Part shown: one piece after another, positions 640 through 30,572 of the stretch | How the letters are laid out: each line of letters opens with the position of its first letter | Numbering within the stretch: the first letter of the stretch is position 1 | Virus record (IMG/VR): IMGVR_UViG_2718218135_000005 | Reading direction: 5' to 3' (one strand) | Length of the DNA: 39,236 nucleotides | From: a virus | Taxonomy: Duplodnaviria; Heunggongvirae; Uroviricota; Caudoviricetes | Translations under genes and position numbers: made by a program | The notes under the pieces: generated by a model | What the model saw: only the letters and a program-made list of their open reading frames with translations | Told to the model about the DNA's origin: nothing | The model's database searches: none

Positions 640-998
640 GTTGTCCTTATGAGCGAGGCGCGGAAGCTCACTTTAGGGTAATCTAATTCACATGTCAGAG
701 GATTTATAAAAAGAGAATAGTGCAGATTTTAGGGATACTTACACTTGCTATGGCATACTTTTTGGGACCCCATCAGTTTAGGGATCTGAATCGCCACAGC
801 TTTGGTAGGCACCTGCTTTATGGTCACGTGCACCCGAAAATCCTGCGGGTACACATGGGTCACGAAAAGTACGAGTCTACAGAAGTTAATTTACGGTTTT
901 TTGCGCTCGATGTGGCTGCCAGCTACCAAGTCCAGTTTACACTGGATACAACTAACGCGCTGTAGCAACTGCGTGGTGGAAGCTGATTAAAGGAGATA

Positions 999-2102
999 AT
1001 GATGTTCGATGTTGACGATACTGCACCCGATACTCCCGACCCCCGTGAACTCAGTCAGGATGTGCAGGCGCTGATCAACAATGGTCTGGATTTTCTGGAT
1101 AAAGCCCGTGAAGAGTTGGAGGCCTCGAAGCCGAAGTTCTCCGTCGTCAGTTTCTGGACTGCGGTCGAGATTTTACTGAAAGTTCCGCTGGCGCACGAAC
1201 ACTGGTCGTTGGTCTGCAGCCCGAAAAAGCCAATAAAAAAGCAGGCTTACCTAGCCGGTGATTTTCAGTCGGTGACCTACGAAGAAACCCGTGAAAGGCT
1301 TAAGGACGTACTTGAAAGCCCCCTAGACAGAGAAACGGACAGTGCTTTTGATAAGGTCAGAAAGCACCGCAACCGCGTAGTTCATTTCTACCACCCCACT
1401 TTCACCGAGGCTGAACAACGTCAAATACTCAAAGAACAAGCTGACGCCTGGTTTGCCCTGAACCGGTTATTAAGGGATGAATGGAAAGTTATCTTCGGTG
1501 TCAAACATAATTGGAAGCTGGCTTTCGGTGAAACTCGTCTGATTAGGGGAAACAAATTTTATGCCGAGGTGCGGTTTAAACAGGTTAAGCCTGAACTCGA
1601 GCAGCTCTCTGAAAAGAATATTCAAATCGGTAACTGCAATGAGTGCCATCAGCATGCGACGGTAACAGGGACTGAAACGACCGGTAATGAAAACCGTAAG
1701 CTTGAAGTTACGCGGTGTAAGGTTTGCACCAGTGCTGTAAGGCAAATTACCCTAGTTTGTCCAGACTGCGAAATACCTCAATTGCTACCTGAGGGAGATA
1801 GTGATTTTGAATGCGAACACTGCGACTACACTTCGGATAGGTATAAACTGCTGGATGAGGAGTTGTTCCACAGTGTGGATGAACAGCTACTCTCCGTATT
1901 TCCTGCTGGATGTACCAATTGCATGACTCCTGAAAGCGTATGTAAATTTGGAGACGGCTATCTTTGCACTCAGTGTTTCATCTATTACACCGAGCTTCAT
2001 GTATGTGGTTGTTGCGGTCACCTGAGCGATAGCGTTCCTGAACTGAGCCATATCCGAGGATGTGAATTTTGTGATGGTGACCAACGTTATTTTGATGACT
2101 GA
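999..2102 (+). CDS. hypothetical Cys-rich protein: helical N-terminal domain with R-x4-H motif, C-terminal array of eight CxxC pairs (predicted zinc ribbons)
   Basis: 367-aa ORF with SD aggag at 991-995; RNRVVH motif in KVRKHRNRVVHFYHP; CNEC, CKVC, CPDC, CEHC, CTNC, CTQC, CGCC, CEFC in the C-terminal half. Function not recognised. Confidence 0.65.
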   Translation: MMFDVDDTAPDTPDPRELSQDVQALINNGLDFLDKAREELEASKPKFSVVSFWTAVEILLKVPLAHEHWSLVCSPKKPIKKQAYLAGDFQSVTYEETRERLKDVLESPLDRETDSAFDKVRKHRNRVVHFYHPTFTEAEQRQILKEQADAWFALNRLLRDEWKVIFGVKHNWKLAFGETRLIRGNKFYAEVRFKQVKPELEQLSEKNIQIGNCNECHQHATVTGTETTGNENRKLEVTRCKVCTSAVRQITLVCPDCEIPQLLPEGDSDFECEHCDYTSDRYKLLDEELFHSVDEQLLSVFPAGCTNCMTPESVCKFGDGYLCTQCFIYYTELHVCGCCGHLSDSVPELSHIRGCEFCDGDQRYFDD

Positions 2103-3884: not shown

Positions 3885-4436
3885 ATGATGCCATCTGCTC
3901 GTTATTTCTGCATTTTCATAAACGTTGGTTTGGGAGAAGGTTCGGCATTACCCGTTGGCGTGCCTGTTCCGTGGCCTTCCACCACTCCGCCAACAGGCTG
4001 GCTGAAATGCAACGGTGCGGCTTTTTCTGCTGAAGCATACCCGGAACTGGCAAAGGCTTATCCGACAAATAAATTGCCTGATTTACGTGGTGAGTTTATT
4101 CGTGGCTGGGATGACGGGCGTGGAGTGGATAGCGGTCGTACTTTATTAACGAATCAAGAGCATGCAGTAATTTCTCATAATCATGGAATACCTACAAAAG
4201 TGGGGTCAGTTACTAATATCCCGTATGGAATAGAACAGGTTCTATCTGATGAAACCATTTTTTCATCAGCAAAAACAGTTGGTGTGGATTACTGGTCTAA
4301 CAGTGAAAGAGTTTTTACTTATACCACTGGTGGAAGAAATGGTGCTGAATCAGTGAGTTCACCTGATGCCTCCTCTTTAATTAAAGAAACCAGACCACGG
4401 AACCTGGCATTTGCGTATATCGTGAGGGCTGCATAA
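3885..4436 (+). CDS. alternative tail-fibre C-terminal (variable) domain, unfused and promoterless in this orientation
   Basis: ORF runs through the left crossover site; product has GWLKCNGAAFSAEAYPELAKAYP, a tail-collar-type fibre tip motif; the annotated ATG is probably not a true start. Confidence 0.6.
   Translation: MMPSARYFCIFINVGLGEGSALPVGVPVPWPSTTPPTGWLKCNGAAFSAEAYPELAKAYPTNKLPDLRGEFIRGWDDGRGVDSGRTLLTNQEHAVISHNHGIPTKVGSVTNIPYGIEQVLSDETIFSSAKTVGVDYWSNSERVFTYTTGGRNGAESVSSPDASSLIKETRPRNLAFAYIVRAA
3913..3938. repeat. invertase crossover site (gix/pix/hix-like), left end of invertible segment
   Basis: TTTTCATAAACGTTGGTTTGGGAGAA fits the 26-bp TTxTCxxAAACC-NN-GGTTTxxGAxAA pattern of Gin/Hin/Pin sites. 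Confidence 0.55.
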
Positions 4437-5044
4437 TGGATTACGCCGTATTAAATAACGAATTTATCGCCACCCAGGCAGGAAATATTACTGTTTATAA
4501 CTATGATGGTGAAACGCGTGAATATATTTCTACATCAACTGAATATCTCGCTGTCGGCGTCGGTATTCCGGCATGTTCTTGTTTGGATGCACCAGGTACA
4601 CATAAAGCTGGTTATGCAATCTGTCGCTCTGTAGATTTAAATTCATGGGAATATGTGCCAGATCATCGCGGTGAAATCGTCTATAGCACCGAAACAGGAG
4701 AATCGAAAGAAATCACAGCTCCGGGTGATTATCCTGAAAATACAACCACTATCGCCCCGTTAACGCCATACGATGAATGGAATGGTGAGAAATGGGTGAC
4801 AGATACCGAGGCACAGCACGGCGCAGCAGTAGATGCAGCAGAAGCACAGCGCCAGTCGCTGATTGATACTGCAATGTCCTCCATCAGTCTGATTCAACTG
4901 AAATTACAGGCCGGACGGAAGCTGACGCAGGCAGAAACAACCCGCCTTAACGCTGTGCTGGATTACATTGACGCGGTGACGGCAACAGATACCAGCACCG
5001 CGCCGGATGTTATCTGGCCTGAACTGCCGGAGACTGCACAATAA
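4436..5044 (+). CDS. tail fibre assembly protein (Tfa) for the alternative fibre tip
   Basis: 202-aa product ending ...DTSTAPDVIWPELPETAQ, the conserved Tfa C-terminus; start overlaps the upstream stop (taATGg). Confidence 0.8.
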   Translation: MDYAVLNNEFIATQAGNITVYNYDGETREYISTSTEYLAVGVGIPACSCLDAPGTHKAGYAICRSVDLNSWEYVPDHRGEIVYSTETGESKEITAPGDYPENTTTIAPLTPYDEWNGEKWVTDTEAQHGAAVDAAEAQRQSLIDTAMSSISLIQLKLQAGRKLTQAETTRLNAVLDYIDAVTATDTSTAPDVIWPELPETAQ

Positions 5045-8163: not shown

Positions 8164-8708
8164 GCCTCCATCGCTTTATCAGGTTTGTCGGTGTTACTGC
8201 CCTGACCGTTCTCTCTGTGACGATGCCCGTTATAGGCAAGCCGCATCGCTGACATGGTGGTGCCGCCGGAGTCGCACAGGTCTTTCACCTGTCCGGTCAC
8301 TTCCAGATCCATTTCAAAACGTGCTTCAGGTGCATTGCGAAACGTGATCGTTTTCCCTGCACCGTCCACCACGATCCCCTCCCGGGTCAGCGTCACAGAC
8401 TGCCCCTGATCGTCATAGACAGCCACCTCACCCGTTTGCAGCCCTTTCAGGCGGTAGCGCCGGTCCGACACCGTAACAACCACCGCATGAGAACGGTCGC
8501 CATCCGGAAACAACACCACCGCTTCCGCACCGCTGTTTGCCCTTGCGGTAAAACCGTAGGGTTCAAGATGTTCAACCCCGGCTTTGGGTTCACCGGCAAT
8601 CAGGGACACATCCACGGTCTGACATTTCGTGGCGGCACTGATGCTTTTCACCACTGCCCGCCCAATCAGGCCGAGAAGTTGTCGCTGCATGGCTTCAATC
8701 GTCCTCAT
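8160..8708 (-). CDS. baseplate assembly/spike protein (gpV / Mu gp45-like)
   Basis: 182-aa product; synteny. Confidence 0.6.
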   Translation of the reverse strand: MRTIEAMQRQLLGLIGRAVVKSISAATKCQTVDVSLIAGEPKAGVEHLEPYGFTARANSGAEAVVLFPDGDRSHAVVVTVSDRRYRLKGLQTGEVAVYDDQGQSVTLTREGIVVDGAGKTITFRNAPEARFEMDLEVTGQVKDLCDSGGTTMSAMRLAYNGHRHRENGQGSNTDKPDKAMEA

Positions 8709-9787
8709 CAGAACGGGTCCTCCTGTACTCTGGCTTTTTTCTTTTTCCGCGCGCCGGGGGCTTCGGGTTCAGGCAGATAAGCATCAGGCGGGCCGACACG
8801 GATTTCCGTCAGGGTGCCGTTCTGGTCCTGAGTAAACGTGACTTCCGAGACAAGCAGTTCGGTATTGTCGAAACCACAGACCGGATCGAAGACAATCACC
8901 CGCTGGTTGGGCTGCCACAGCGTACCGTTACCCTGTCGCCAGCCCTGCACCACATAGGTGGTTTCATCCGTCCGCGCCGCCCGTTTTCGGGCTTCAAAGT
9001 CAGCACGCGCAATACAGCCAGCCCCCGTGGCCTGCCCTGTCTGCCTGATATACATCGGACGGTAACGGGCAATAAATGCGTCCTCTGTGCGGGCCCGCAG
9101 CGCGGTGGTGGTGGCCTCACCGAAATCATCGTCGTTTCCGGCACGCTGCCCCGCCACCTGGTAAACAGAAAACCGCTCCCGGATACTCTTCTCCGTATCA
9201 CAGGAAAGGATGTTTTCCCCAAGTACCAGCGCGGTATGTGCCCGCGTTGAGCCAATACCGCCAATCACCAGCCTGCCGTGCGGGTCGTCATAAGCCAGCG
9301 CCTGCTGCTGACCGAGTATTTTGTTAATCACCTCGATCACCGTTTCACCGTGATCAGGCTGGACATCAGGAATAACACCCGACGGCGCACCGCTGTTCAC
9401 CACCTCAATGCCGAAGGGCGCAGCAAGCGCCTGCGCAATCTGTACCAGTGATCGTCCGTTAAACTGTGTCGGTTCAGCTACACAATCAATCAGGTCAGCG
9501 GTCAGACTGCGTCCGGCAATACCGGTGCTGACCGAACGGGCATCGTAACGAACGGGCGTCGCCTCCACCCAGCCGGTGATCACCAGCTCATCACCAATCA
9601 GCACCTCCACTTTTGAACCGTTTTTAATGCGCGGCTGAAGCGTGGTGATACCCTCATCACCCGGCCACTGGCGGGTGATCTCCACACTGAAATCCCGCGC
9701 CAGTCGTTCAACACCGGCACCGATGCGCACCGATGTCCAGCCATTCCACTCCCGGCCATTTACCCGTAGCGTGACATTGTCGTTCAT
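8708..9787 (-). CDS. tail protein (Mu P / late control D-like baseplate hub)
   Basis: 359-aa product; synteny between DNA-circulation and baseplate genes. Confidence 0.6.
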   Translation of the reverse strand: MNDNVTLRVNGREWNGWTSVRIGAGVERLARDFSVEITRQWPGDEGITTLQPRIKNGSKVEVLIGDELVITGWVEATPVRYDARSVSTGIAGRSLTADLIDCVAEPTQFNGRSLVQIAQALAAPFGIEVVNSGAPSGVIPDVQPDHGETVIEVINKILGQQQALAYDDPHGRLVIGGIGSTRAHTALVLGENILSCDTEKSIRERFSVYQVAGQRAGNDDDFGEATTTALRARTEDAFIARYRPMYIRQTGQATGAGCIARADFEARKRAARTDETTYVVQGWRQGNGTLWQPNQRVIVFDPVCGFDNTELLVSEVTFTQDQNGTLTEIRVGPPDAYLPEPEAPGARKKKKARVQEDPF

Positions 9788-11154
9788 TGCACTGGCACCT
9801 TCAGAGGGATCACCGGCACAAAGCCGGGATGCGTAATGGCATTACGCCGGATAATGTCCGCGTCACGCGCCGCGTTATCAAACCAGGTCGCCGCCAGCAC
9901 CAGCGCGGGTAAAACCTCATCCGGCGTGCGCTGAATGATCCGTGCAGACTGTTCAAGGCGCGTGTTGATATCCGCATTCAGATCTGCTTTCACCCGGCGC
10001 AGCGCCAGAAACAGCGCATCACTGGTTGTACGGGACAACTCCTTATCAATTGCCGTATTCAGTGTGTCGCGAATGTCGGTCAGTTCTTCCCACGTTGGCA
10101 GGTCAACCGTGTTTTTCACCGCCGGTGCATTGTTCAGTGCCGGATGCGTGACAGAAGGCCAGCCGGTGCTCTGCGCGGGTGTTGTTGACTGCCCTACTGT
10201 GGCATTCTGCATCACCGCGGAAGTTGTGGGCGCAGGCAATCGTGTGACGGCATACGCCGCTTCGCTGATTGCGGTCGTACGAAGGGTGCTGGCAACCACG
10301 TTACGCTGCTGCGTCGCCGTGGCGGTAGTTTTACTGTCCGTTTTCCAGACGCCGCGCGGTTGCAGATCGCTGCCGAGGCTGACACCGGAAAGCGTTTTGA
10401 TCATGGTGACCAGGTCGCTGTCGTTACCATAAAGGCGTTTCCCGGTACGCCACATTTTCTGCACCTGCTCAACGAAATTTTTGCCTGACGATGGTGGCGG
10501 CAGAAGTACCGAGATATCCCCCTGCAACAGCCTGGCGGCATCCGATACGGCAGAATCCACCACTTTCATCGCATCAGAAACATACCCAAGCATTGTGCTG
10601 GCATTACCGACGACGTCGTTCTGCACAAAATCTGCCACGCCATCGATACTGAAACCACTGAAGCTGTCACTGATGCAGTCATCCAGTGCAGAACAGGATG
10701 ACATCAGCGTCTGCGCCGTCGCCGCACCTGAAGTGGGGTAAGAGAGTTCTCCCGCTTCGACAAACTTCAGGTCAAAGCGGACAATACGCCCTTCACTCTT
10801 CGATGTGCTGACCCGAACTTCCCCGTCAACACAGACTTTCAGCTCACCGTAAGTCGGATGGACAAGCGTGCCGGGACCGGGTTTATTCAGCGCGTCAATC
10901 AGGCGATCGCGCTGGTCAAAGCAGTCATCTCCCACCACATAAGCTGTGATGGACGGGCGGAAAGTGATTTTCCCCAGGTCTTCGGTATAGGGTTTGTCGC
11001 GGTTCGGGTATTCGTGCGTTTCCACACGACGACCGGTTCCCGCACTTTCTTCTTCAACCTTAAACGGCACACCGCGAAATGACGCGTCCTGAAGTCTGTC
11101 TTTCCACGTCATATAAACTCCGTACATAAAAAATCCCACCGGAGTGGGACTCAT
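9784..11154 (-). CDS. DNA circulation protein (Mu N-like)
   Basis: 456-aa product; position directly after tape measure. Confidence 0.6.
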   Translation of the reverse strand: MSPTPVGFFMYGVYMTWKDRLQDASFRGVPFKVEEESAGTGRRVETHEYPNRDKPYTEDLGKITFRPSITAYVVGDDCFDQRDRLIDALNKPGPGTLVHPTYGELKVCVDGEVRVSTSKSEGRIVRFDLKFVEAGELSYPTSGAATAQTLMSSCSALDDCISDSFSGFSIDGVADFVQNDVVGNASTMLGYVSDAMKVVDSAVSDAARLLQGDISVLLPPPSSGKNFVEQVQKMWRTGKRLYGNDSDLVTMIKTLSGVSLGSDLQPRGVWKTDSKTTATATQQRNVVASTLRTTAISEAAYAVTRLPAPTTSAVMQNATVGQSTTPAQSTGWPSVTHPALNNAPAVKNTVDLPTWEELTDIRDTLNTAIDKELSRTTSDALFLALRRVKADLNADINTRLEQSARIIQRTPDEVLPALVLAATWFDNAARDADIIRRNAITHPGFVPVIPLKVPVQ

Positions 11155-23087: not shown

Positions 23088-23501
23088 TCACTTCAACCGT
23101 TCACGGGCCGTCTTCGCCTTATGACACGGCCAGCACAGACTCTGCAGATTACAGTCGGCATCAGTGCCGCCATGCGCTTTAGGGATGATGTGGTCAACAG
23201 TTTTCGCCTCACGCACCACACCAGCACGCAGACATAACTGACACAGGCCTTTGTCACGCTTCAGGACACGCGCGCGGATACAGTCCCACTTCGAACCGTA
23301 GCCGCGCTGATGACGGGACTGGCCTGGCTTGTATTGCTTCCAGCCTTCGCTTTTGTGGCTTTCGCAATAGCCTGACGAGTCAGTGGTGGTATGGGGGCAG
23401 CCGCGAACGCGGCAGGCTTTTGGGGTTCGTGGTGGCATTGCATAATCCTCTTGGATGGTTCGCGTGCGATACGTGGCATCCTTCTCAGAATCGAATCGCA
23501 C
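23088..23501 (-). CDS. HNH endonuclease (packaging-associated)
   Basis: 137-aa product with CQLCLRAG...VDHIIPKAHGGTDADCNLQSLCWPCH, a canonical HNH/zinc motif; sits upstream of terS as in HK97-like phages. Confidence 0.8.
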   Translation of the reverse strand: MRFDSEKDATYRTRTIQEDYAMPPRTPKACRVRGCPHTTTDSSGYCESHKSEGWKQYKPGQSRHQRGYGSKWDCIRARVLKRDKGLCQLCLRAGVVREAKTVDHIIPKAHGGTDADCNLQSLCWPCHKAKTARERLK

Positions 23502-23588
23502 TCCACTCCGGTTTTGCCATAAACGATCTTTTATGCTTCGCTGGATGTAGTTGATAGTTGTTGAAACTCAATGAACAGGAGTTCACAA

Positions 23589-23924
23589 ATGAATAGTTAT
23601 GAATGGGAATGGCTTTTAAACAAAGATGACACCCTATGCTTTTTCCCCGTAGGCCATTCTGTAGAAGGTAATTACAAAATTCACTTTGAGTTGAGCGGTA
23701 GTTGTAACCTTAGAGTCTCAGATGCTGAATGGCATGGTAAACCTGTACTGCTGTTCGAATACTTCGATGAAGATGATGACCGCCCTGCAATAATCGAAAT
23801 ATTAGAAACAACCACTACAACTGTGGAGGCGATGATCGCACATCTGAATAGTATCGATAGTATTTACCATGAACCGATTTACAAAGCGGTTTACGAGTGG
23901 GCCGTAAAGTTTTTCTATCGATGA
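23589..23924 (+). CDS. hypothetical small acidic protein (moron gene 1)
   Basis: ATG at 23589 preceded by caggag; AT-rich by eye; antisense to the late operon. Confidence 0.5.
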   Translation: MNSYEWEWLLNKDDTLCFFPVGHSVEGNYKIHFELSGSCNLRVSDAEWHGKPVLLFEYFDEDDDRPAIIEILETTTTTVEAMIAHLNSIDSIYHEPIYKAVYEWAVKFFYR

Positions 23925-24024
23925 TACTTCGTTATCTTGCTGGCATTCACAATACCTTTACATATTAATGACATGCCAGCACAATACTGTCACTTACAAC
24001 CGTTCGGATTACCTAGAGAAAAGT

Positions 24025-24594
24025 ATGATTCAGGATTTACTGATCGAAGCAATTAGTCACGATAGGATGCATAAAAAGTTAAATGAACTGAATTGCTACT
24101 TCTACAATCGCAAACATGAAACTCAAATACGTGATGAGTTAGTTGTTATTCTCAATCAAATCAGCACACTAACTGCTTTAAGTGAGCATCCAAAACTCGG
24201 TATCGGCGCTGTTGACATATCACTTTATAACCAGTCGATATTAACGTCTGAACATAATGGCAATGTTGCAACCATCGAGATCAAACACCATTACCCAAAG
24301 GATTTACTTTATCGGCAAGTTCAAGAAGACATCATTTCCGATATTTCAAGAGTAATAGTTTCACCAACTACACATTTTATCCATATAATCCAGCAAAGAA
24401 CTAGGATTAATACTCCTTCTTTTGGCCAAGTGAAATTCCTTGAACGTGATGCAAGTGATATCAGCACTTATGTGCAATGCCTTGAAGAGCTAAGTTCCTT
24501 CCCCAGTATCTTTCATAAAAAAAGTATATGTATTGAGGTACTTGGTGAAATTATGTCGACATATACCTTTAACGTATATTCATTTGACAACTGA
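24025..24594 (+). CDS. hypothetical protein with PD-(D/E)xK-like nuclease signature (moron gene 2)
   Basis: ATG at 24025; product has GIGAVDISLY then ~20 residues later VATIEIKHH, a D ... E-x-K arrangement; AT-rich by eye. Confidence 0.5.
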   Translation: MIQDLLIEAISHDRMHKKLNELNCYFYNRKHETQIRDELVVILNQISTLTALSEHPKLGIGAVDISLYNQSILTSEHNGNVATIEIKHHYPKDLLYRQVQEDIISDISRVIVSPTTHFIHIIQQRTRINTPSFGQVKFLERDASDISTYVQCLEELSSFPSIFHKKSICIEVLGEIMSTYTFNVYSFDN

Positions 24595-24615
24595 TTAATT
24601 TGACAATTTTATTGC

Positions 24616-26206: not shown

Positions 26207-26953
26207 ATGCGACATAATTTTTCTAAAGACACTATAAAAAAATTAGCAGAGCGGGCAGCATTCATTTGTTCAAACCCTTCATGCCCTAGATTGACCATTG
26301 GCCCATCAATTGATGGCAATAAATCAATCAAGACAGGAGTTGCTGCTCACATATGTGCAGCATCTCCTGATGGCCCACGCTATGACATGTCACAATCAGA
26401 AACAGAAAGGAAGTCAATTAACAATGGCATATGGCTGTGTGCTACTTGTTCTGTATTAATAGATAAGAATCAGGGGCTAGACTATCCGGCACCTGTATTA
26501 AGAAAATGGAAAAAAGATCATGAAAGCCTTATAAGCTCCTGTCTTGAAGGTTCGATTAATATTACCTTCGATGCTTTGAAATATATTCAACAGCATGATG
26601 AAAGAAATCTGGCAAAAAAGATTATAAATGAATTGGATGATAAAGGGGCTTTGTTCGTAGAATATCATCTTGAAAACCCCTGTTTTGTTGCCGAATCACT
26701 CAAAGAGTTAAGAACATGTTTGACCTCTTTGCTTTCTCAAATCCCAGATGAATCACCTCTATTTATCGTTTGCAAGTCAATTCGAGAAGCATGCCGTTAT
26801 TATATGAACAACACTTCTAAAGACGCAGGGATTAAAGAGTTAGAATTTTCGTTGGGAGCTGTCAGAAAAATCGTAGGTATCAACGTTAAAAGAATATCAG
26901 AAACCTACGGGGTTAAACCTAGCCCACAATTATCTACCATAATGCCAGATTAA
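26207..26953 (+). CDS. hypothetical HNH-like zinc-finger protein with uncharacterised C-terminal domain
   Basis: CSNPSCPRL ... AAHICAASPDGPRY ... NNGIWLCATCSVLIDKN resembles an HNH motif; AT-rich by eye; antisense between Q and holin. Confidence 0.5.
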   Translation: MRHNFSKDTIKKLAERAAFICSNPSCPRLTIGPSIDGNKSIKTGVAAHICAASPDGPRYDMSQSETERKSINNGIWLCATCSVLIDKNQGLDYPAPVLRKWKKDHESLISSCLEGSINITFDALKYIQQHDERNLAKKIINELDDKGALFVEYHLENPCFVAESLKELRTCLTSLLSQIPDESPLFIVCKSIREACRYYMNNTSKDAGIKELEFSLGAVRKIVGINVKRISETYGVKPSPQLSTIMPD

Positions 26954-29599: not shown

Positions 29600-29922
29600 A
29601 CTTTCAGGCCCCTCTCATGTAACCAGTGGGCTGCACGCAGCCTGGCGTTTTCCTCACCGGCAAGCAGTGAGCGGATAATCCCGACCGCCTCGCTGTCGTC
29701 GTCCTTCACCGCGGTATGAAGCGTTATCCCCCGGGCCACGCCACGCTTTATCGTGATGACGCCTTTTTTCTCCAGCGCACGAAGATGCTCCACCGCTGCA
29801 TTCACCGAACGGTATCCCAGCATGGTTGCCACCTCCTGATTGGTTGGCGGGAAACCACGTTCTTTCTGATAAGAAATCAGCATATCCAGCACCTGCTGCT
29901 GGCATTGAGTTAACGTCGTCAT
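29596..29922 (-). CDS. LexA-type winged-helix DNA-binding protein
   Basis: QQQVLDMLISYQKERGFPPTNQEVATMLGYRSVNAAVEHLRALEKKGVI resembles the LexA N-terminal DNA-binding domain. Confidence 0.5.
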   Translation of the reverse strand: MTTLTQCQQQVLDMLISYQKERGFPPTNQEVATMLGYRSVNAAVEHLRALEKKGVITIKRGVARGITLHTAVKDDDSEAVGIIRSLLAGEENARLRAAHWLHERGLKV

Positions 29923-30572
29923 GCCGCCATCTCCCTGACCAGTTTTTCCGCCTGCTGACGAACCTGCTCCAGAAACGCCTCACCACATGCCTCAAGTTCA
30001 TCGCGCCCGATGTAGCTGATTGCCGGTCCATTCCAGGTCTTATCGAAAACAGCAATAGCACCAGCGAAGAAAGCGCCTGTCGGCACCTGCTTCTCATCCT
30101 TCGGGATAAACCAGGCAGGCAGTTCAAAACCAATACGCCCGCGAATAAAAGCAATATGATCTGCATCTTCCGGCCACCACACTTCGCTGGTGGCAGCTTT
30201 GATCAGGAAAACATAGCGCCCGCCCTTATCACGCATGGCACTGGCATGCTTCATGATGTAACGCATGCCGGTGATGTATTGCCCCTCATGCTGACTGGCG
30301 CGGCTGTATGGGGGATTACCAAAGGCAGCACCTTTTAGCTCCGCAAGACGTTCTGACCAGTCATGCGCCAGCGCGTTGTCTTCCGCCGTGTAATACGCAG
30401 CACATTTGGCGTTATCACCGTCAGTGAACAGATCCAGAACAAACGGGCCAAACAGGGTGTTAATTCCCCAGAAAATGTTATCCGGCGTGCGCCACTGATC
30501 GCCCACTTCCTTCAGTTCATGGGCTGGTTTGTTCCGCAGTTCGACCAGCGCCTGGCAATATTTATTACTCAT
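29919..30572 (-). CDS. phage N6-adenine DNA methyltransferase (orphan, Dam-like)
   Basis: FGNPPYSRA catalytic motif; start taken at MSNKYCQ (ORF track extends to 30605). Confidence 0.7.
   Translation of the reverse strand: MSNKYCQALVELRNKPAHELKEVGDQWRTPDNIFWGINTLFGPFVLDLFTDGDNAKCAAYYTAEDNALAHDWSERLAELKGAAFGNPPYSRASQHEGQYITGMRYIMKHASAMRDKGGRYVFLIKAATSEVWWPEDADHIAFIRGRIGFELPAWFIPKDEKQVPTGAFFAGAIAVFDKTWNGPAISYIGRDELEACGEAFLEQVRQQAEKLVREMAA

Follow-up and report, generated by a model that had tools for sequence, protein, structure and literature searches.

Lysogens of phage lambda express bor, a gene directly downstream of Rz whose transcription runs against the late operon. The locus analyzed here, part of an SfV-like E. 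coli prophage, shares with bor and other lambdoid morons the slot after Rz/Rz1 and before the packaging genes, the orientation antisense to the late transcript, the deviant base composition and the presence/absence polymorphism. In contrast to bor, which codes for an outer-membrane lipoprotein, it encodes a predicted cytoplasmic nuclease-like protein together with an acidic protein, and a search for the promoter and terminator that a classic moron should have gave no convincing candidates. Prophage and satellite positions with anti-phage systems have been described as the hotspots of P2 and P4 (Rousset et al., 2022; PMC9122126), and the Tha/Ith case of S. aureus phages illustrates how antisense placement switches off a prophage defense gene on induction (PMC11087260). 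Our locus resembles the former as a fixed temperate-phage position that exchanges diverse cargo and the latter as a gene lying antisense inside a lytic transcription unit, but unlike in both of these systems no cargo of the present slot matches a known defense model.

With regard to the protein itself, the nearest structural neighbors of the predicted model are EcoRV/SwaI-like type II restriction endonucleases (5tgq R.SwaI, 1dmu BglI, 1eo3 EcoRV). However, identity is only 12–15%, there is no significant sequence or Foldseek match, and the gene is a lone prophage gene without an adjacent methyltransferase in any of the loci sampled. Restriction endonuclease genes separated from their methyltransferase have been documented before, in 57 of 272 solitary genes (Ershova et al., 2012; PMC3488263), and the same candidate explanations apply to the REase-like gene without linked methyltransferase found here: its cognate methyltransferase may be encoded far away, its activity may be methyl-directed, or it may have a different function or be decaying. 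However, the genes of that survey are REBASE-annotated homologues of known enzymes, many of them fragments, whereas the present gene is full-length, under purifying selection and a member of an unannotated family.

The window, i.e., the whole stretch of 39,236 nucleotides that was analyzed, carries both open reading frames on the plus strand as called in the first-pass annotation, and they coincide with two RefSeq coding sequences of a 100% identical prophage in E. coli S56. All flanking genes are on the minus strand, the pair being bordered by terL, terS and HNH at one end and by Rz1, Rz, lysozyme and holin at the other, which agrees with the antisense orientation first described. The start of the HNH gene, annotated with 116 aa, is at 23438 and not at 23501, and an alignment of six SfV-like prophages revealed that prophage homology breaks exactly at this start codon. 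Therefore, the imported cassette extends from about 23439 to 24615 (1.18 kb) and comprises the following features:

23439–23588, plus strand: left edge of the cassette and 5' region of the small gene; homology with prophages carrying other cargo or none ends at 23438
23589–23924, plus strand: gene of the small acidic protein, 111 aa (phrog_14397; WP_001089762.1)
23925–24024, plus strand: intergenic spacer, without homology to the single-gene versions and with a weak promoter-like site
24025–24594, plus strand: nuclease-like gene, 189 aa, with a predicted PD-(D/E)xK fold (phrog_12494; WP_000613841.1)
24118–24120, plus strand: codon of E32 in the first core helix, a putative acidic metal-site residue, invariant in 32 of 32 relatives
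24214–24216, plus strand: codon of D64 at the start of beta-2, predicted catalytic, invariant in 32 of 32 relatives, aligned with EcoRV D74 by hhalign
24277–24285, plus strand: codons of E85-I-K87 in beta-3, predicted (D/E)xK motif, with E85 and K87 invariant in 32 of 32 relatives, aligned with EcoRV D90-I-K92

The larger gene could also be read from the ATG at 23968, giving a 208-aa version, but every homologue begins at the ATG at 24025 (MIQ...), and the alternative start was therefore rejected.

The view of the insert as an AT-rich import between packaging and lysis genes held up in the composition analysis. The GC content is 0.402 for the small gene and 0.356 for the nuclease gene (GC3 0.39 and 0.33, respectively) versus 0.54–0.59 for terL, terS and HNH (GC3 0.60–0.66); the value is 0.512 for the whole window and 0.40 for positions 23502–23588. 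Homologues from every host sampled are also low in GC (0.32–0.40). Furthermore, the two genes have separate module boundaries in blastn comparisons. Homology of the small-gene module, which is about 67% identical to three other loci (L009, L011 and L013), starts at window position 23497/23503 and ends at 23922, and homology of the nuclease module begins at 24019. The module takes in about 85–90 bp 5' of the small-gene ATG, and in these three loci it adjoins unrelated terS genes. The promoter scan yielded one promoter-like site in the spacer (TTTACA-N17-CACAAT, 23957–23985), which is weak with 9 of 12 positions, and no sigma-70 consensus in 23439–23588; the terminator scan yielded one weak hairpin within the small gene. 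Such sites are not in excess over shuffled sequence in the region, the upstream regions are not conserved between loci, and the scans gave neither a convincing sigma-70 promoter nor a convincing terminator for the two genes. Expression in the lysogen is therefore an assumption.

The junction that harbors the cassette is polymorphic in E. coli. The cassette is present in 75–80 of 5426 complete genomes (about 1.4%), and in related E. coli prophages the gap between HNH and Rz1 ranges from an empty version of 26 bp to at least six other cargos, among them a 197-aa ORF, a 113-aa ORF, a pair of 74- and 50-aa ORFs, a DUF6236 protein, a GrlR-like protein and, next to the nuclease, a 151-aa ORF. Each gene of the cassette is also found in unrelated prophages, again antisense and again at the junction of lysis and terminase genes. 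Presence and absence between homologous prophages, sharp boundaries and deviant composition are all seen here, and the best reading of the insert is that of two independent morons stacked in one slot that is the positional equivalent of the lambda bor slot. PADLOC-DB 2.0 defense HMMs retrieved zero families for either protein at E values up to 1, and PADLOC models did not match the alternative slot cargos, so that the slot is not demonstrably a defense hotspot. A neighboring moron of the same prophage (26207–26953, 248 aa) matches the PADLOC model PDC-M68A (7.5e-27).

The first-pass annotation had assigned the larger protein to the PD-(D/E)xK nucleases on the basis of GIGAVDISLY and VATIEIKHH about 20 residues apart. 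Both motifs are present, with D64 and E85 separated by 21 residues. As a loose pattern, D-x(10-30)-[DE]-x-K is uninformative alone; among the window's ORFs of 100 aa or more, 29 of 71 have it, and so do 1006 of 2000 shuffled versions of the 189-aa protein. The motif carries weight because it is invariant across the family and lies on the right strands of the model: K30, E32, D64, E85 and K87 are the only invariant columns among 32 relatives, down to about 20% identity, and the confident AF2 model (pLDDT 84) has the core order alpha-beta-beta-beta-alpha-beta, with E32 in helix 29–46, D64 directly before strand 65–68 and E85 and K87 within strand 80–89. The register is the same in an hhalign comparison of the family profile with EcoRV (sequence verified as 1eo3_A), which places D64 on D74 and E85-x-K87 on D90-x-K92, in a match that is itself weak (pairwise E 0.011, probability 3.8%). 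By its helix position E32 is possibly equivalent to EcoRV E45, which lies outside the reach of this alignment.

Profile and structure searches had been proposed as a check. The core fold is there in the AF2 model; a significant match is missing: Pfam, NCBIfam and PADLOC models did not match the 189-aa protein, the family profile did not match any PDB sequence, and Foldseek of the model against PDB and BFVD returned nothing at E ≤0.001. Sub-threshold matches to Pfam families of the PD-(D/E)xK clan (HSDR_N in two members with a best value of 1.4e-4, PDDEXK_9, DUF234, DpnII-MboI and Tox-REase-7) occur among the 32 relatives and belong to distant family members, not to the window protein. The gene is under purifying selection (dN/dS 0.12–0.15), and as the metal and catalytic set of E32, D64 and E85-x-K87 is intact as well, the most likely activity predicted is Mg2+-dependent DNA cutting. 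Judging from the model and the conserved residues, it is very probable that the larger protein acts as a PD-(D/E)xK nuclease.

The protein founds a small, unannotated family in the PD-(D/E)xK superfamily. With 42 members among 1.84 billion representatives the family is tiny; a profile search with the alignment of the close subfamily detected it in four species genomes, and the identified hosts of this subfamily are Enterobacterales only. In Enterobacter, Yersinia, Citrobacter and Proteus the gene lies antisense between Rz and terS of prophages with unrelated terminases, and distant relatives are found in non-phage chromosomal contexts. Megablast and tblastn searches of 50,697 phage records did not detect a homologue of either gene of the cassette, PHROGs contains only families of unknown function built from the same proteins, and a literature search with both accessions and PHROG identifiers found no paper. 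In one metagenomic relative (L008) a neighboring ORF was considered as a tandem paralogue and turned out to be unrelated.

The small protein has a pI of 4.56 (20 D+E versus 8 K+R) and a conserved DEDDD loop. It matches phrog_14397 over its full length (5.6e-79) and has relatives in Enterobacterales only; searches against Pfam, NCBIfam and PADLOC gave nothing above noise. With a pLDDT of 56, its AF2 model does not have the quality that a fold search requires, and the family profile produced chance-level matches only against PDB sequences. Compared with four single-gene loci (L009, L013, L021 and L022) dN is 0.19–0.42, and the synonymous sites are saturated. As a lead only, 5 of 22 relatives have P22_AR_C matches in their C-terminal helices, which stay below threshold (14–17 bits; cut-off 22.4). 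Apparent fusions, in the form of 189-aa entries in the small-protein cluster, are nuclease variants and a listing artefact.

The small protein had also been proposed as a partner or immunity factor of the nuclease, and a toxic nuclease with an acidic protein that counteracts it, as antitoxin, immunity factor or inhibitor and possibly by mimicking DNA, would make the two genes one module. They are neighbors in the same orientation with 100 bp between them, the 75–80 E. coli genomes have them together, and the acidic character with the DEDDD loop would suit such a role. Furthermore, IS3 elements in complete E. coli genomes sometimes disrupt the nuclease gene with the small gene intact and never the reverse, and upstream of the nuclease in some other loci there is a small ORF of another kind, e.g., one of 77 aa in Enterobacter. 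The distribution of both genes contradicts the proposal, however. Of the divergent nuclease loci, 37 have sufficient sequence upstream, and all 37 lack the small gene; conversely, the nuclease is absent from 18 of 18 divergent small-gene loci; the small gene occupies the same slot alone in L009–L015, L021–L023 and L115–L124, and a single E. coli cassette lineage, of near-identical copies, is the only one in which the two are joined. The distance between terS and the nuclease start is 41 bp in Citrobacter (L029) and 37 bp in L064, which leaves no room for an upstream gene, and Yersinia does not have one either. An E. coli variant of the slot retains a 96% identical nuclease, but where the small gene would be it has another ORF, on the minus strand. 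The upstream ORF of Enterobacter shows no relationship to the small protein, and the spacer between the two genes is not shared with the single-gene versions. The partner proposal is therefore not supported, and a toxin-immunity module is distinctly unlikely. As judged from these sequence comparisons, the 111-aa protein is a separate, independently mobile moron and not the cognate partner of the nuclease.

If the nuclease is a sequence-specific type II-like enzyme, protection of its sites could come from a remote methyltransferase, either the PF05869 Dam-family enzyme encoded in the same prophage (29919–30572, 2.6e-45) or host Dam/Dcm, in a split restriction-modification system. Enterobacterales are Dam-positive, and the identified hosts of the close subfamily all belong to this order; the orthodox type II enzymes among the best structural neighbors and the known precedents of separated genes also fit. 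On the other hand, the Dam gene is part of the prophage backbone, in its early region, homologues of it or of the D12 methyltransferase of Yersinia are absent within about 5–6 kb of any other nuclease locus, and the single DpnII-MboI match in Pfam (E 0.046, 1 of 32 members) is within noise. There is no methyltransferase among the genes called beside the nuclease in the window, Enterobacter, Citrobacter, Proteus, L007, L008 and L024, and the sole linked one among the nuclease loci is the Yersinia D12 enzyme, 3.3 kb off and across the lysis cassette; a regex scan for methyltransferase motifs was discarded as insensitive, as it missed this known enzyme. Hence, as far as these loci go, the nuclease is solitary and has no methyltransferase linked to it, and a split system is unlikely. 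PD-(D/E)xK homing endonucleases exist, and a free-standing selfish enzyme that cuts the empty lysis/terminase junction and is copied in by repair, without benefit to the host, would explain the AT-richness, the patchy distribution, the polymorphism among related prophages and the clean insertion at the same junction of conserved genes, with precise boundaries at the neighboring gene ends. But the flanks of the carriers are wholly different (a P27-type terS with HNH, two Terminase_2 types, an Sf6-type terS, and different Rz and lysozyme families) and argue against a common target sequence, and distant relatives reside outside of phages. The slot also takes many unrelated cargos that are not nucleases, which indicates a general recombination and cargo site, and homing is very unlikely. 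A phage enzyme of the lytic cycle for host DNA degradation, recombination or junction resolution, not expressed as an accessory gene of the lysogen, is highly improbable: the gene is antisense to the late operon and far from the early operons, it lacks a tblastn homologue in the sequenced phage records, and the prophage already encodes RusA. Moreover, most otherwise near-identical prophages lack it, including those with empty-slot alleles, so that it is dispensable.

We therefore return to two separate, horizontally acquired single-gene morons stacked at the lysis/packaging junction. On balance we favor, as somewhat probable, that the larger one is a solitary EcoRV/SwaI-like nuclease which is expressed in the lysogen and attacks incoming foreign DNA; the lack of both a linked methyltransferase and a conserved partner argues for action as a solitary enzyme. 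Both genes point against the Q-dependent late transcript, the nuclease would attack the DNA of superinfecting phages or plasmids, and the antisense late transcript may damp the nuclease when the prophage goes lytic. It is a reasonable candidate for a prophage defense gene; nuclease activity, expression from the prophage, a defense role and sparing of the host genome are what we infer from the features of the locus. A more far-reaching version, which we regard as improbable, would see a new class of single-gene, methylase-free restriction morons, EcoRV/SwaI-like endonucleases carried by temperate phages of Dam-positive Enterobacterales, that are modification-dependent or protected by Dam/Dcm or the prophage Dam enzyme and are silenced by antisense transcription, with the junction as a self-regulating defense slot.

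If the protein is inactive or irrelevant to phage resistance, the cassette is just another uncharacterized moron pair. If it is an active solitary endonuclease, it would be a compact candidate for prophage-encoded immunity in a single gene of 189 aa, from a family that is unnamed in Pfam, NCBIfam, PHROGs and PADLOC and hypothetical in every source, and the question would be how a restriction-like enzyme without a methylase spares its host. Should the new class be real, the junction would be a general defense slot of lambdoid and SfV-like prophages. In any case, the lysis/packaging junction is an antisense cargo slot common to several unrelated types of Enterobacterales prophages and a place to mine for accessory and defense genes.

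The window corresponds to an SfV/e14-like E. coli prophage adjoining tRNA-Thr and proA and shares 100% identity with E. coli S56 (NZ_CP010242) throughout the region. All late genes (Q, holin, lysozyme, Rz/Rz1, then HNH, the P27-family terS, terL, portal onward) are encoded on the minus strand, and two plus-strand genes are located between HNH and Rz1, in line with the first-pass annotation, which had described an antisense, AT-rich moron between packaging and lysis genes. The genes considered here are:

23088-23438, minus strand, HNH gene, annotated as 116 aa; listed from a GTG at 23501 as a 137-aa ORF (23088-23501)
23589-23924, plus strand, small gene, 111 aa, identical to RefSeq CDS WP_001089762.1 ("hypothetical protein"), between HNH and Rz1
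24025-24594, plus strand, nuclease gene, 189 aa, identical to RefSeq CDS WP_000613841.1 ("hypothetical protein"), between HNH and Rz1
26207-26953, plus strand, second antisense AT-rich moron, 248 aa, GC 0.376, between the Q antiterminator and holin
29919-30572, minus strand, prophage Dam-family N6-adenine methyltransferase (PF05869, 2.6e-45), early/nin region, 5.3 kb from the nuclease gene

All other sources likewise give "hypothetical protein" for the small and the nuclease gene product. The GC content is 0.402 for the small gene and 0.356 for the nuclease gene in comparison to 0.54-0.59 for the packaging genes, and GC3 is lowered in the same way (0.39 and 0.33 versus 0.60-0.66). The HNH gene begins at the annotated ATG at 23438 and not at the GTG at 23501, and homology to sister prophages ends precisely at this ATG. 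Due to this sharp break the insert covers about 23439-24615, so that the left edge of 23502 proposed by the first-pass annotation falls within imported DNA. Both ORF positions agree exactly with the RefSeq CDSs. The insert is imported, antisense and consists of two modules, which are homologous at the DNA level over 23497-23922 (small gene) and 24019-24590 (nuclease gene) with an unshared spacer in between.

Judged from its predicted fold and catalytic motif, the 189-aa protein very probably belongs to the PD-(D/E)xK superfamily of nucleases. D64 and E85-I-K87, the motifs behind the original assignment, are present; by itself, a loose D...(D/E)xK pattern, which occurs in 41% of the long ORFs of the window and in 50% of shuffled versions of this protein, is uninformative. 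Conservation is a stronger argument than the fold: K30, E32, D64, E85 and K87 are the only invariant columns in an alignment of 32 relatives down to about 20% identity, and in the AF2 model they occupy the expected catalytic positions: the first helix carries E32, D64 lies where beta-2 begins, and beta-3 carries E85-x-K87. The catalytic residues of EcoRV are D74 and D90-x-K92, and a profile comparison with this enzyme (sequence identical to 1eo3_A) pairs D64 with D74 and E85-x-K87 with D90-x-K92, with weak statistics (pairwise E 0.011). The AF2 model draws on 16 homologues and has high confidence (pLDDT 83.9, pTM 0.84), and its order of elements (helix 29-46, strands 50-53, 65-68 and 80-89, helix 97-108, strand 117-127) is that of the canonical restriction-endonuclease core. 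A Foldseek search of the model against PDB and BFVD gave no significant match and therefore the fold evidence alone is moderate. The protein likewise has no match among Pfam, NCBIfam or PADLOC models, and its PHROGs match is a family of unknown function made from that same protein. Distant members repeatedly gave sub-threshold Pfam matches to families of the PD-(D/E)xK clan, namely HSDR_N (1.4e-4), PDDEXK_9, DUF234, DpnII-MboI and Tox-REase-7. The family is very small: an exhaustive profile search with a cut-off of E <=1e-3 recovered 42 representatives out of 1.84 billion, and among 5.8 billion sequences there are 26 clusters at the 90% identity level. Purifying selection acts on the gene, as dN/dS is 0.12-0.15 wherever dS can be measured; in the other comparisons dS is saturated and dN is 0.2-0.5. 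The protein is probably a real, Mg2+-dependent DNA endonuclease, predicted to be active and nearest to the EcoRV/SwaI branch. On a metagenomic contig (L026), a PDDEXK_4 family protein (795-1487, plus strand, 7e-23) directly follows the distant relative P0052, which places two different PD-(D/E)xK genes in tandem.

It had also been suggested that the small protein, which is indeed acidic (pI 4.56), might be a partner or immunity factor of the nuclease. Both genes occur together in complete E. coli genomes (nuclease gene in 80, intact in 75; small gene in 79), but among the fetched loci they never occur together outside this near-identical cassette. Using tblastn with both proteins on 125 loci (assemblies, species genomes and IMG/VR) and defining divergent as <90% identity, the small gene was absent from 37/37 divergent nuclease loci with enough upstream DNA, and the nuclease from 18 divergent small-gene loci; a nineteenth, also without nuclease, was left out as its sequence ends too close downstream. 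The neighbors of the nuclease vary: an unrelated 77-aa ORF lies upstream in Enterobacter hormaechei and no gene in Yersinia, the distance from the nuclease start to the terS start codon is only 41 bp in Citrobacter (L029) and 37 bp in an IMG/VR locus (L064), and an IMG/VR E. coli SfV-like prophage (L055) keeps the nuclease at 96% identity with a 151-aa ORF (4369-4824, minus strand) in place of the small gene. The product of this ORF has a hydrophobic segment that probably spans the membrane. Conversely, the small gene is found by itself, at a distance of about 70 bp from where the packaging module begins, in Escherichia sp. ESNIH1, several metagenome and IMG/VR prophage contigs and a Serratia-type contig. 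A Pantoea prophage remnant has the small gene at its edge. As the loci separate, the neighbors vary and the spacer is unshared, an obligate antitoxin, immunity or partner relation is not supported, and the pair differs from toxin-immunity systems in its co-occurrence. In E. coli 24AR0142 (L032, 2501-4059) and CD45 (L033, 2501-3842), the nuclease gene is interrupted or truncated by independent insertions of IS3-family elements next to an intact small gene; such insertions in a few genomes would fit a nuclease that is mildly costly, although this is anecdotal. The carrier prophage of CD45 adjoins icd, not tRNA-Thr/proA.

For the small protein the AF2 model is poor. The sole pointer to its function, and a lead only, is a possible similarity to P22_AR_C (P22 antirepressor C-terminal domain), with sub-threshold Pfam matches (13-17 bits, cut-off 22.4) in 5/22 relatives scanned (P0079, P0081, P0086 and P0088 among them) that cover two C-terminal helices (residues about 70-116).

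The HNH-Rz1 gap is polymorphic among related E. coli SfV-like prophages (L016-L020, L055 and the search hits H44/H45), with the following contents:

strain 4114 (L018): empty, 26 bp
related E. coli prophage: 197-aa ORF
related E. coli prophage: 113-aa ORF
related E. coli prophage: 74-aa and 50-aa ORFs
related E. coli prophage: DUF6236 protein
related E. coli prophage: GrlR-like (GrlR-family) protein
L055: 151-aa minus-strand ORF, beside the nuclease

A PADLOC scan of four of these cargos (197 aa, 113 aa, 74 aa, DUF6236), the Enterobacter 77-aa ORF and a 154-aa ORF beside the small gene in locus L011 gave no match. Nuclease homologues with 50-72% identity are located between Rz and the small terminase, opposed to both, in Enterobacter, Yersinia, Citrobacter and Proteus prophages, whose terminases belong to the unrelated families Terminase_2 (two lengths) and Terminase_4. 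One metagenomic relative adjoins a Sf6-type terS on the same strand and more distant relatives are lone chromosomal genes. Neither gene was found by tblastn in 50,697 sequenced phage records or mentioned in the searchable literature. The position of the cassette matches that of lambda bor, which follows Rz antisense to the late operon and is expressed in the lysogen. The 248-aa moron, located across the lysis cassette, has an HNH-like N-terminal part and matches PDC-M68A, a candidate defence protein of PADLOC, at 7.5e-27 and models of CBASS SAVED-HNH effectors at 4e-19, so that two backward nuclease-like genes flank this cassette.

No methyltransferase adjoins the nuclease gene in the window or in the Enterobacter, Yersinia, Citrobacter, Proteus, metagenomic or distant chromosomal loci, which separates it from type II R-M systems. 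The nuclease, with an intact, conserved predicted catalytic set, is solitary, having neither a linked methyltransferase nor a conserved partner. In the Yersinia enterocolitica prophage (L006), an island between holin and the Q antiterminator (8281-10816, plus strand), beyond the lysis cassette from the nuclease, encodes a 501-aa protein that matches nothing in Pfam and, directly after it in the island, a D12-class N6-adenine methyltransferase. These two may form a defence or R-M-like pair; Mom and ParB-like genes adjoin terS in this prophage.

We propose that the repressed prophage would make the nuclease, which may cleave incoming DNA and restrict superinfecting phages or plasmids. A promoter and terminator scan of the cassette revealed nothing convincing for either gene, and therefore expression from the prophage is only presumed. 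During the prophage's own replication, Q-dependent late transcription, which crosses the cassette in antisense, might lower nuclease expression, by analogy to Tha/Ith in S. aureus prophages, an antisense unit whose expression is lowered in this way (Rostøl et al., PMC11087260). The chromosome could be spared by a distant or housekeeping methyltransferase, by modification-dependent cleavage or by a non-restriction function, the options described for solitary REases (Ershova et al., PMC3488263).

Nothing in the evidence is categorically new. The 189-aa protein has no PADLOC HMM match to known defence systems, and the most suitable placement for it is a new, unannotated family inside a known superfamily, borne as a classic moron. 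As a candidate single-gene prophage nuclease it is clean and amenable to experiments, and the findings at the HNH-Rz1 junction point to a reusable cargo slot.
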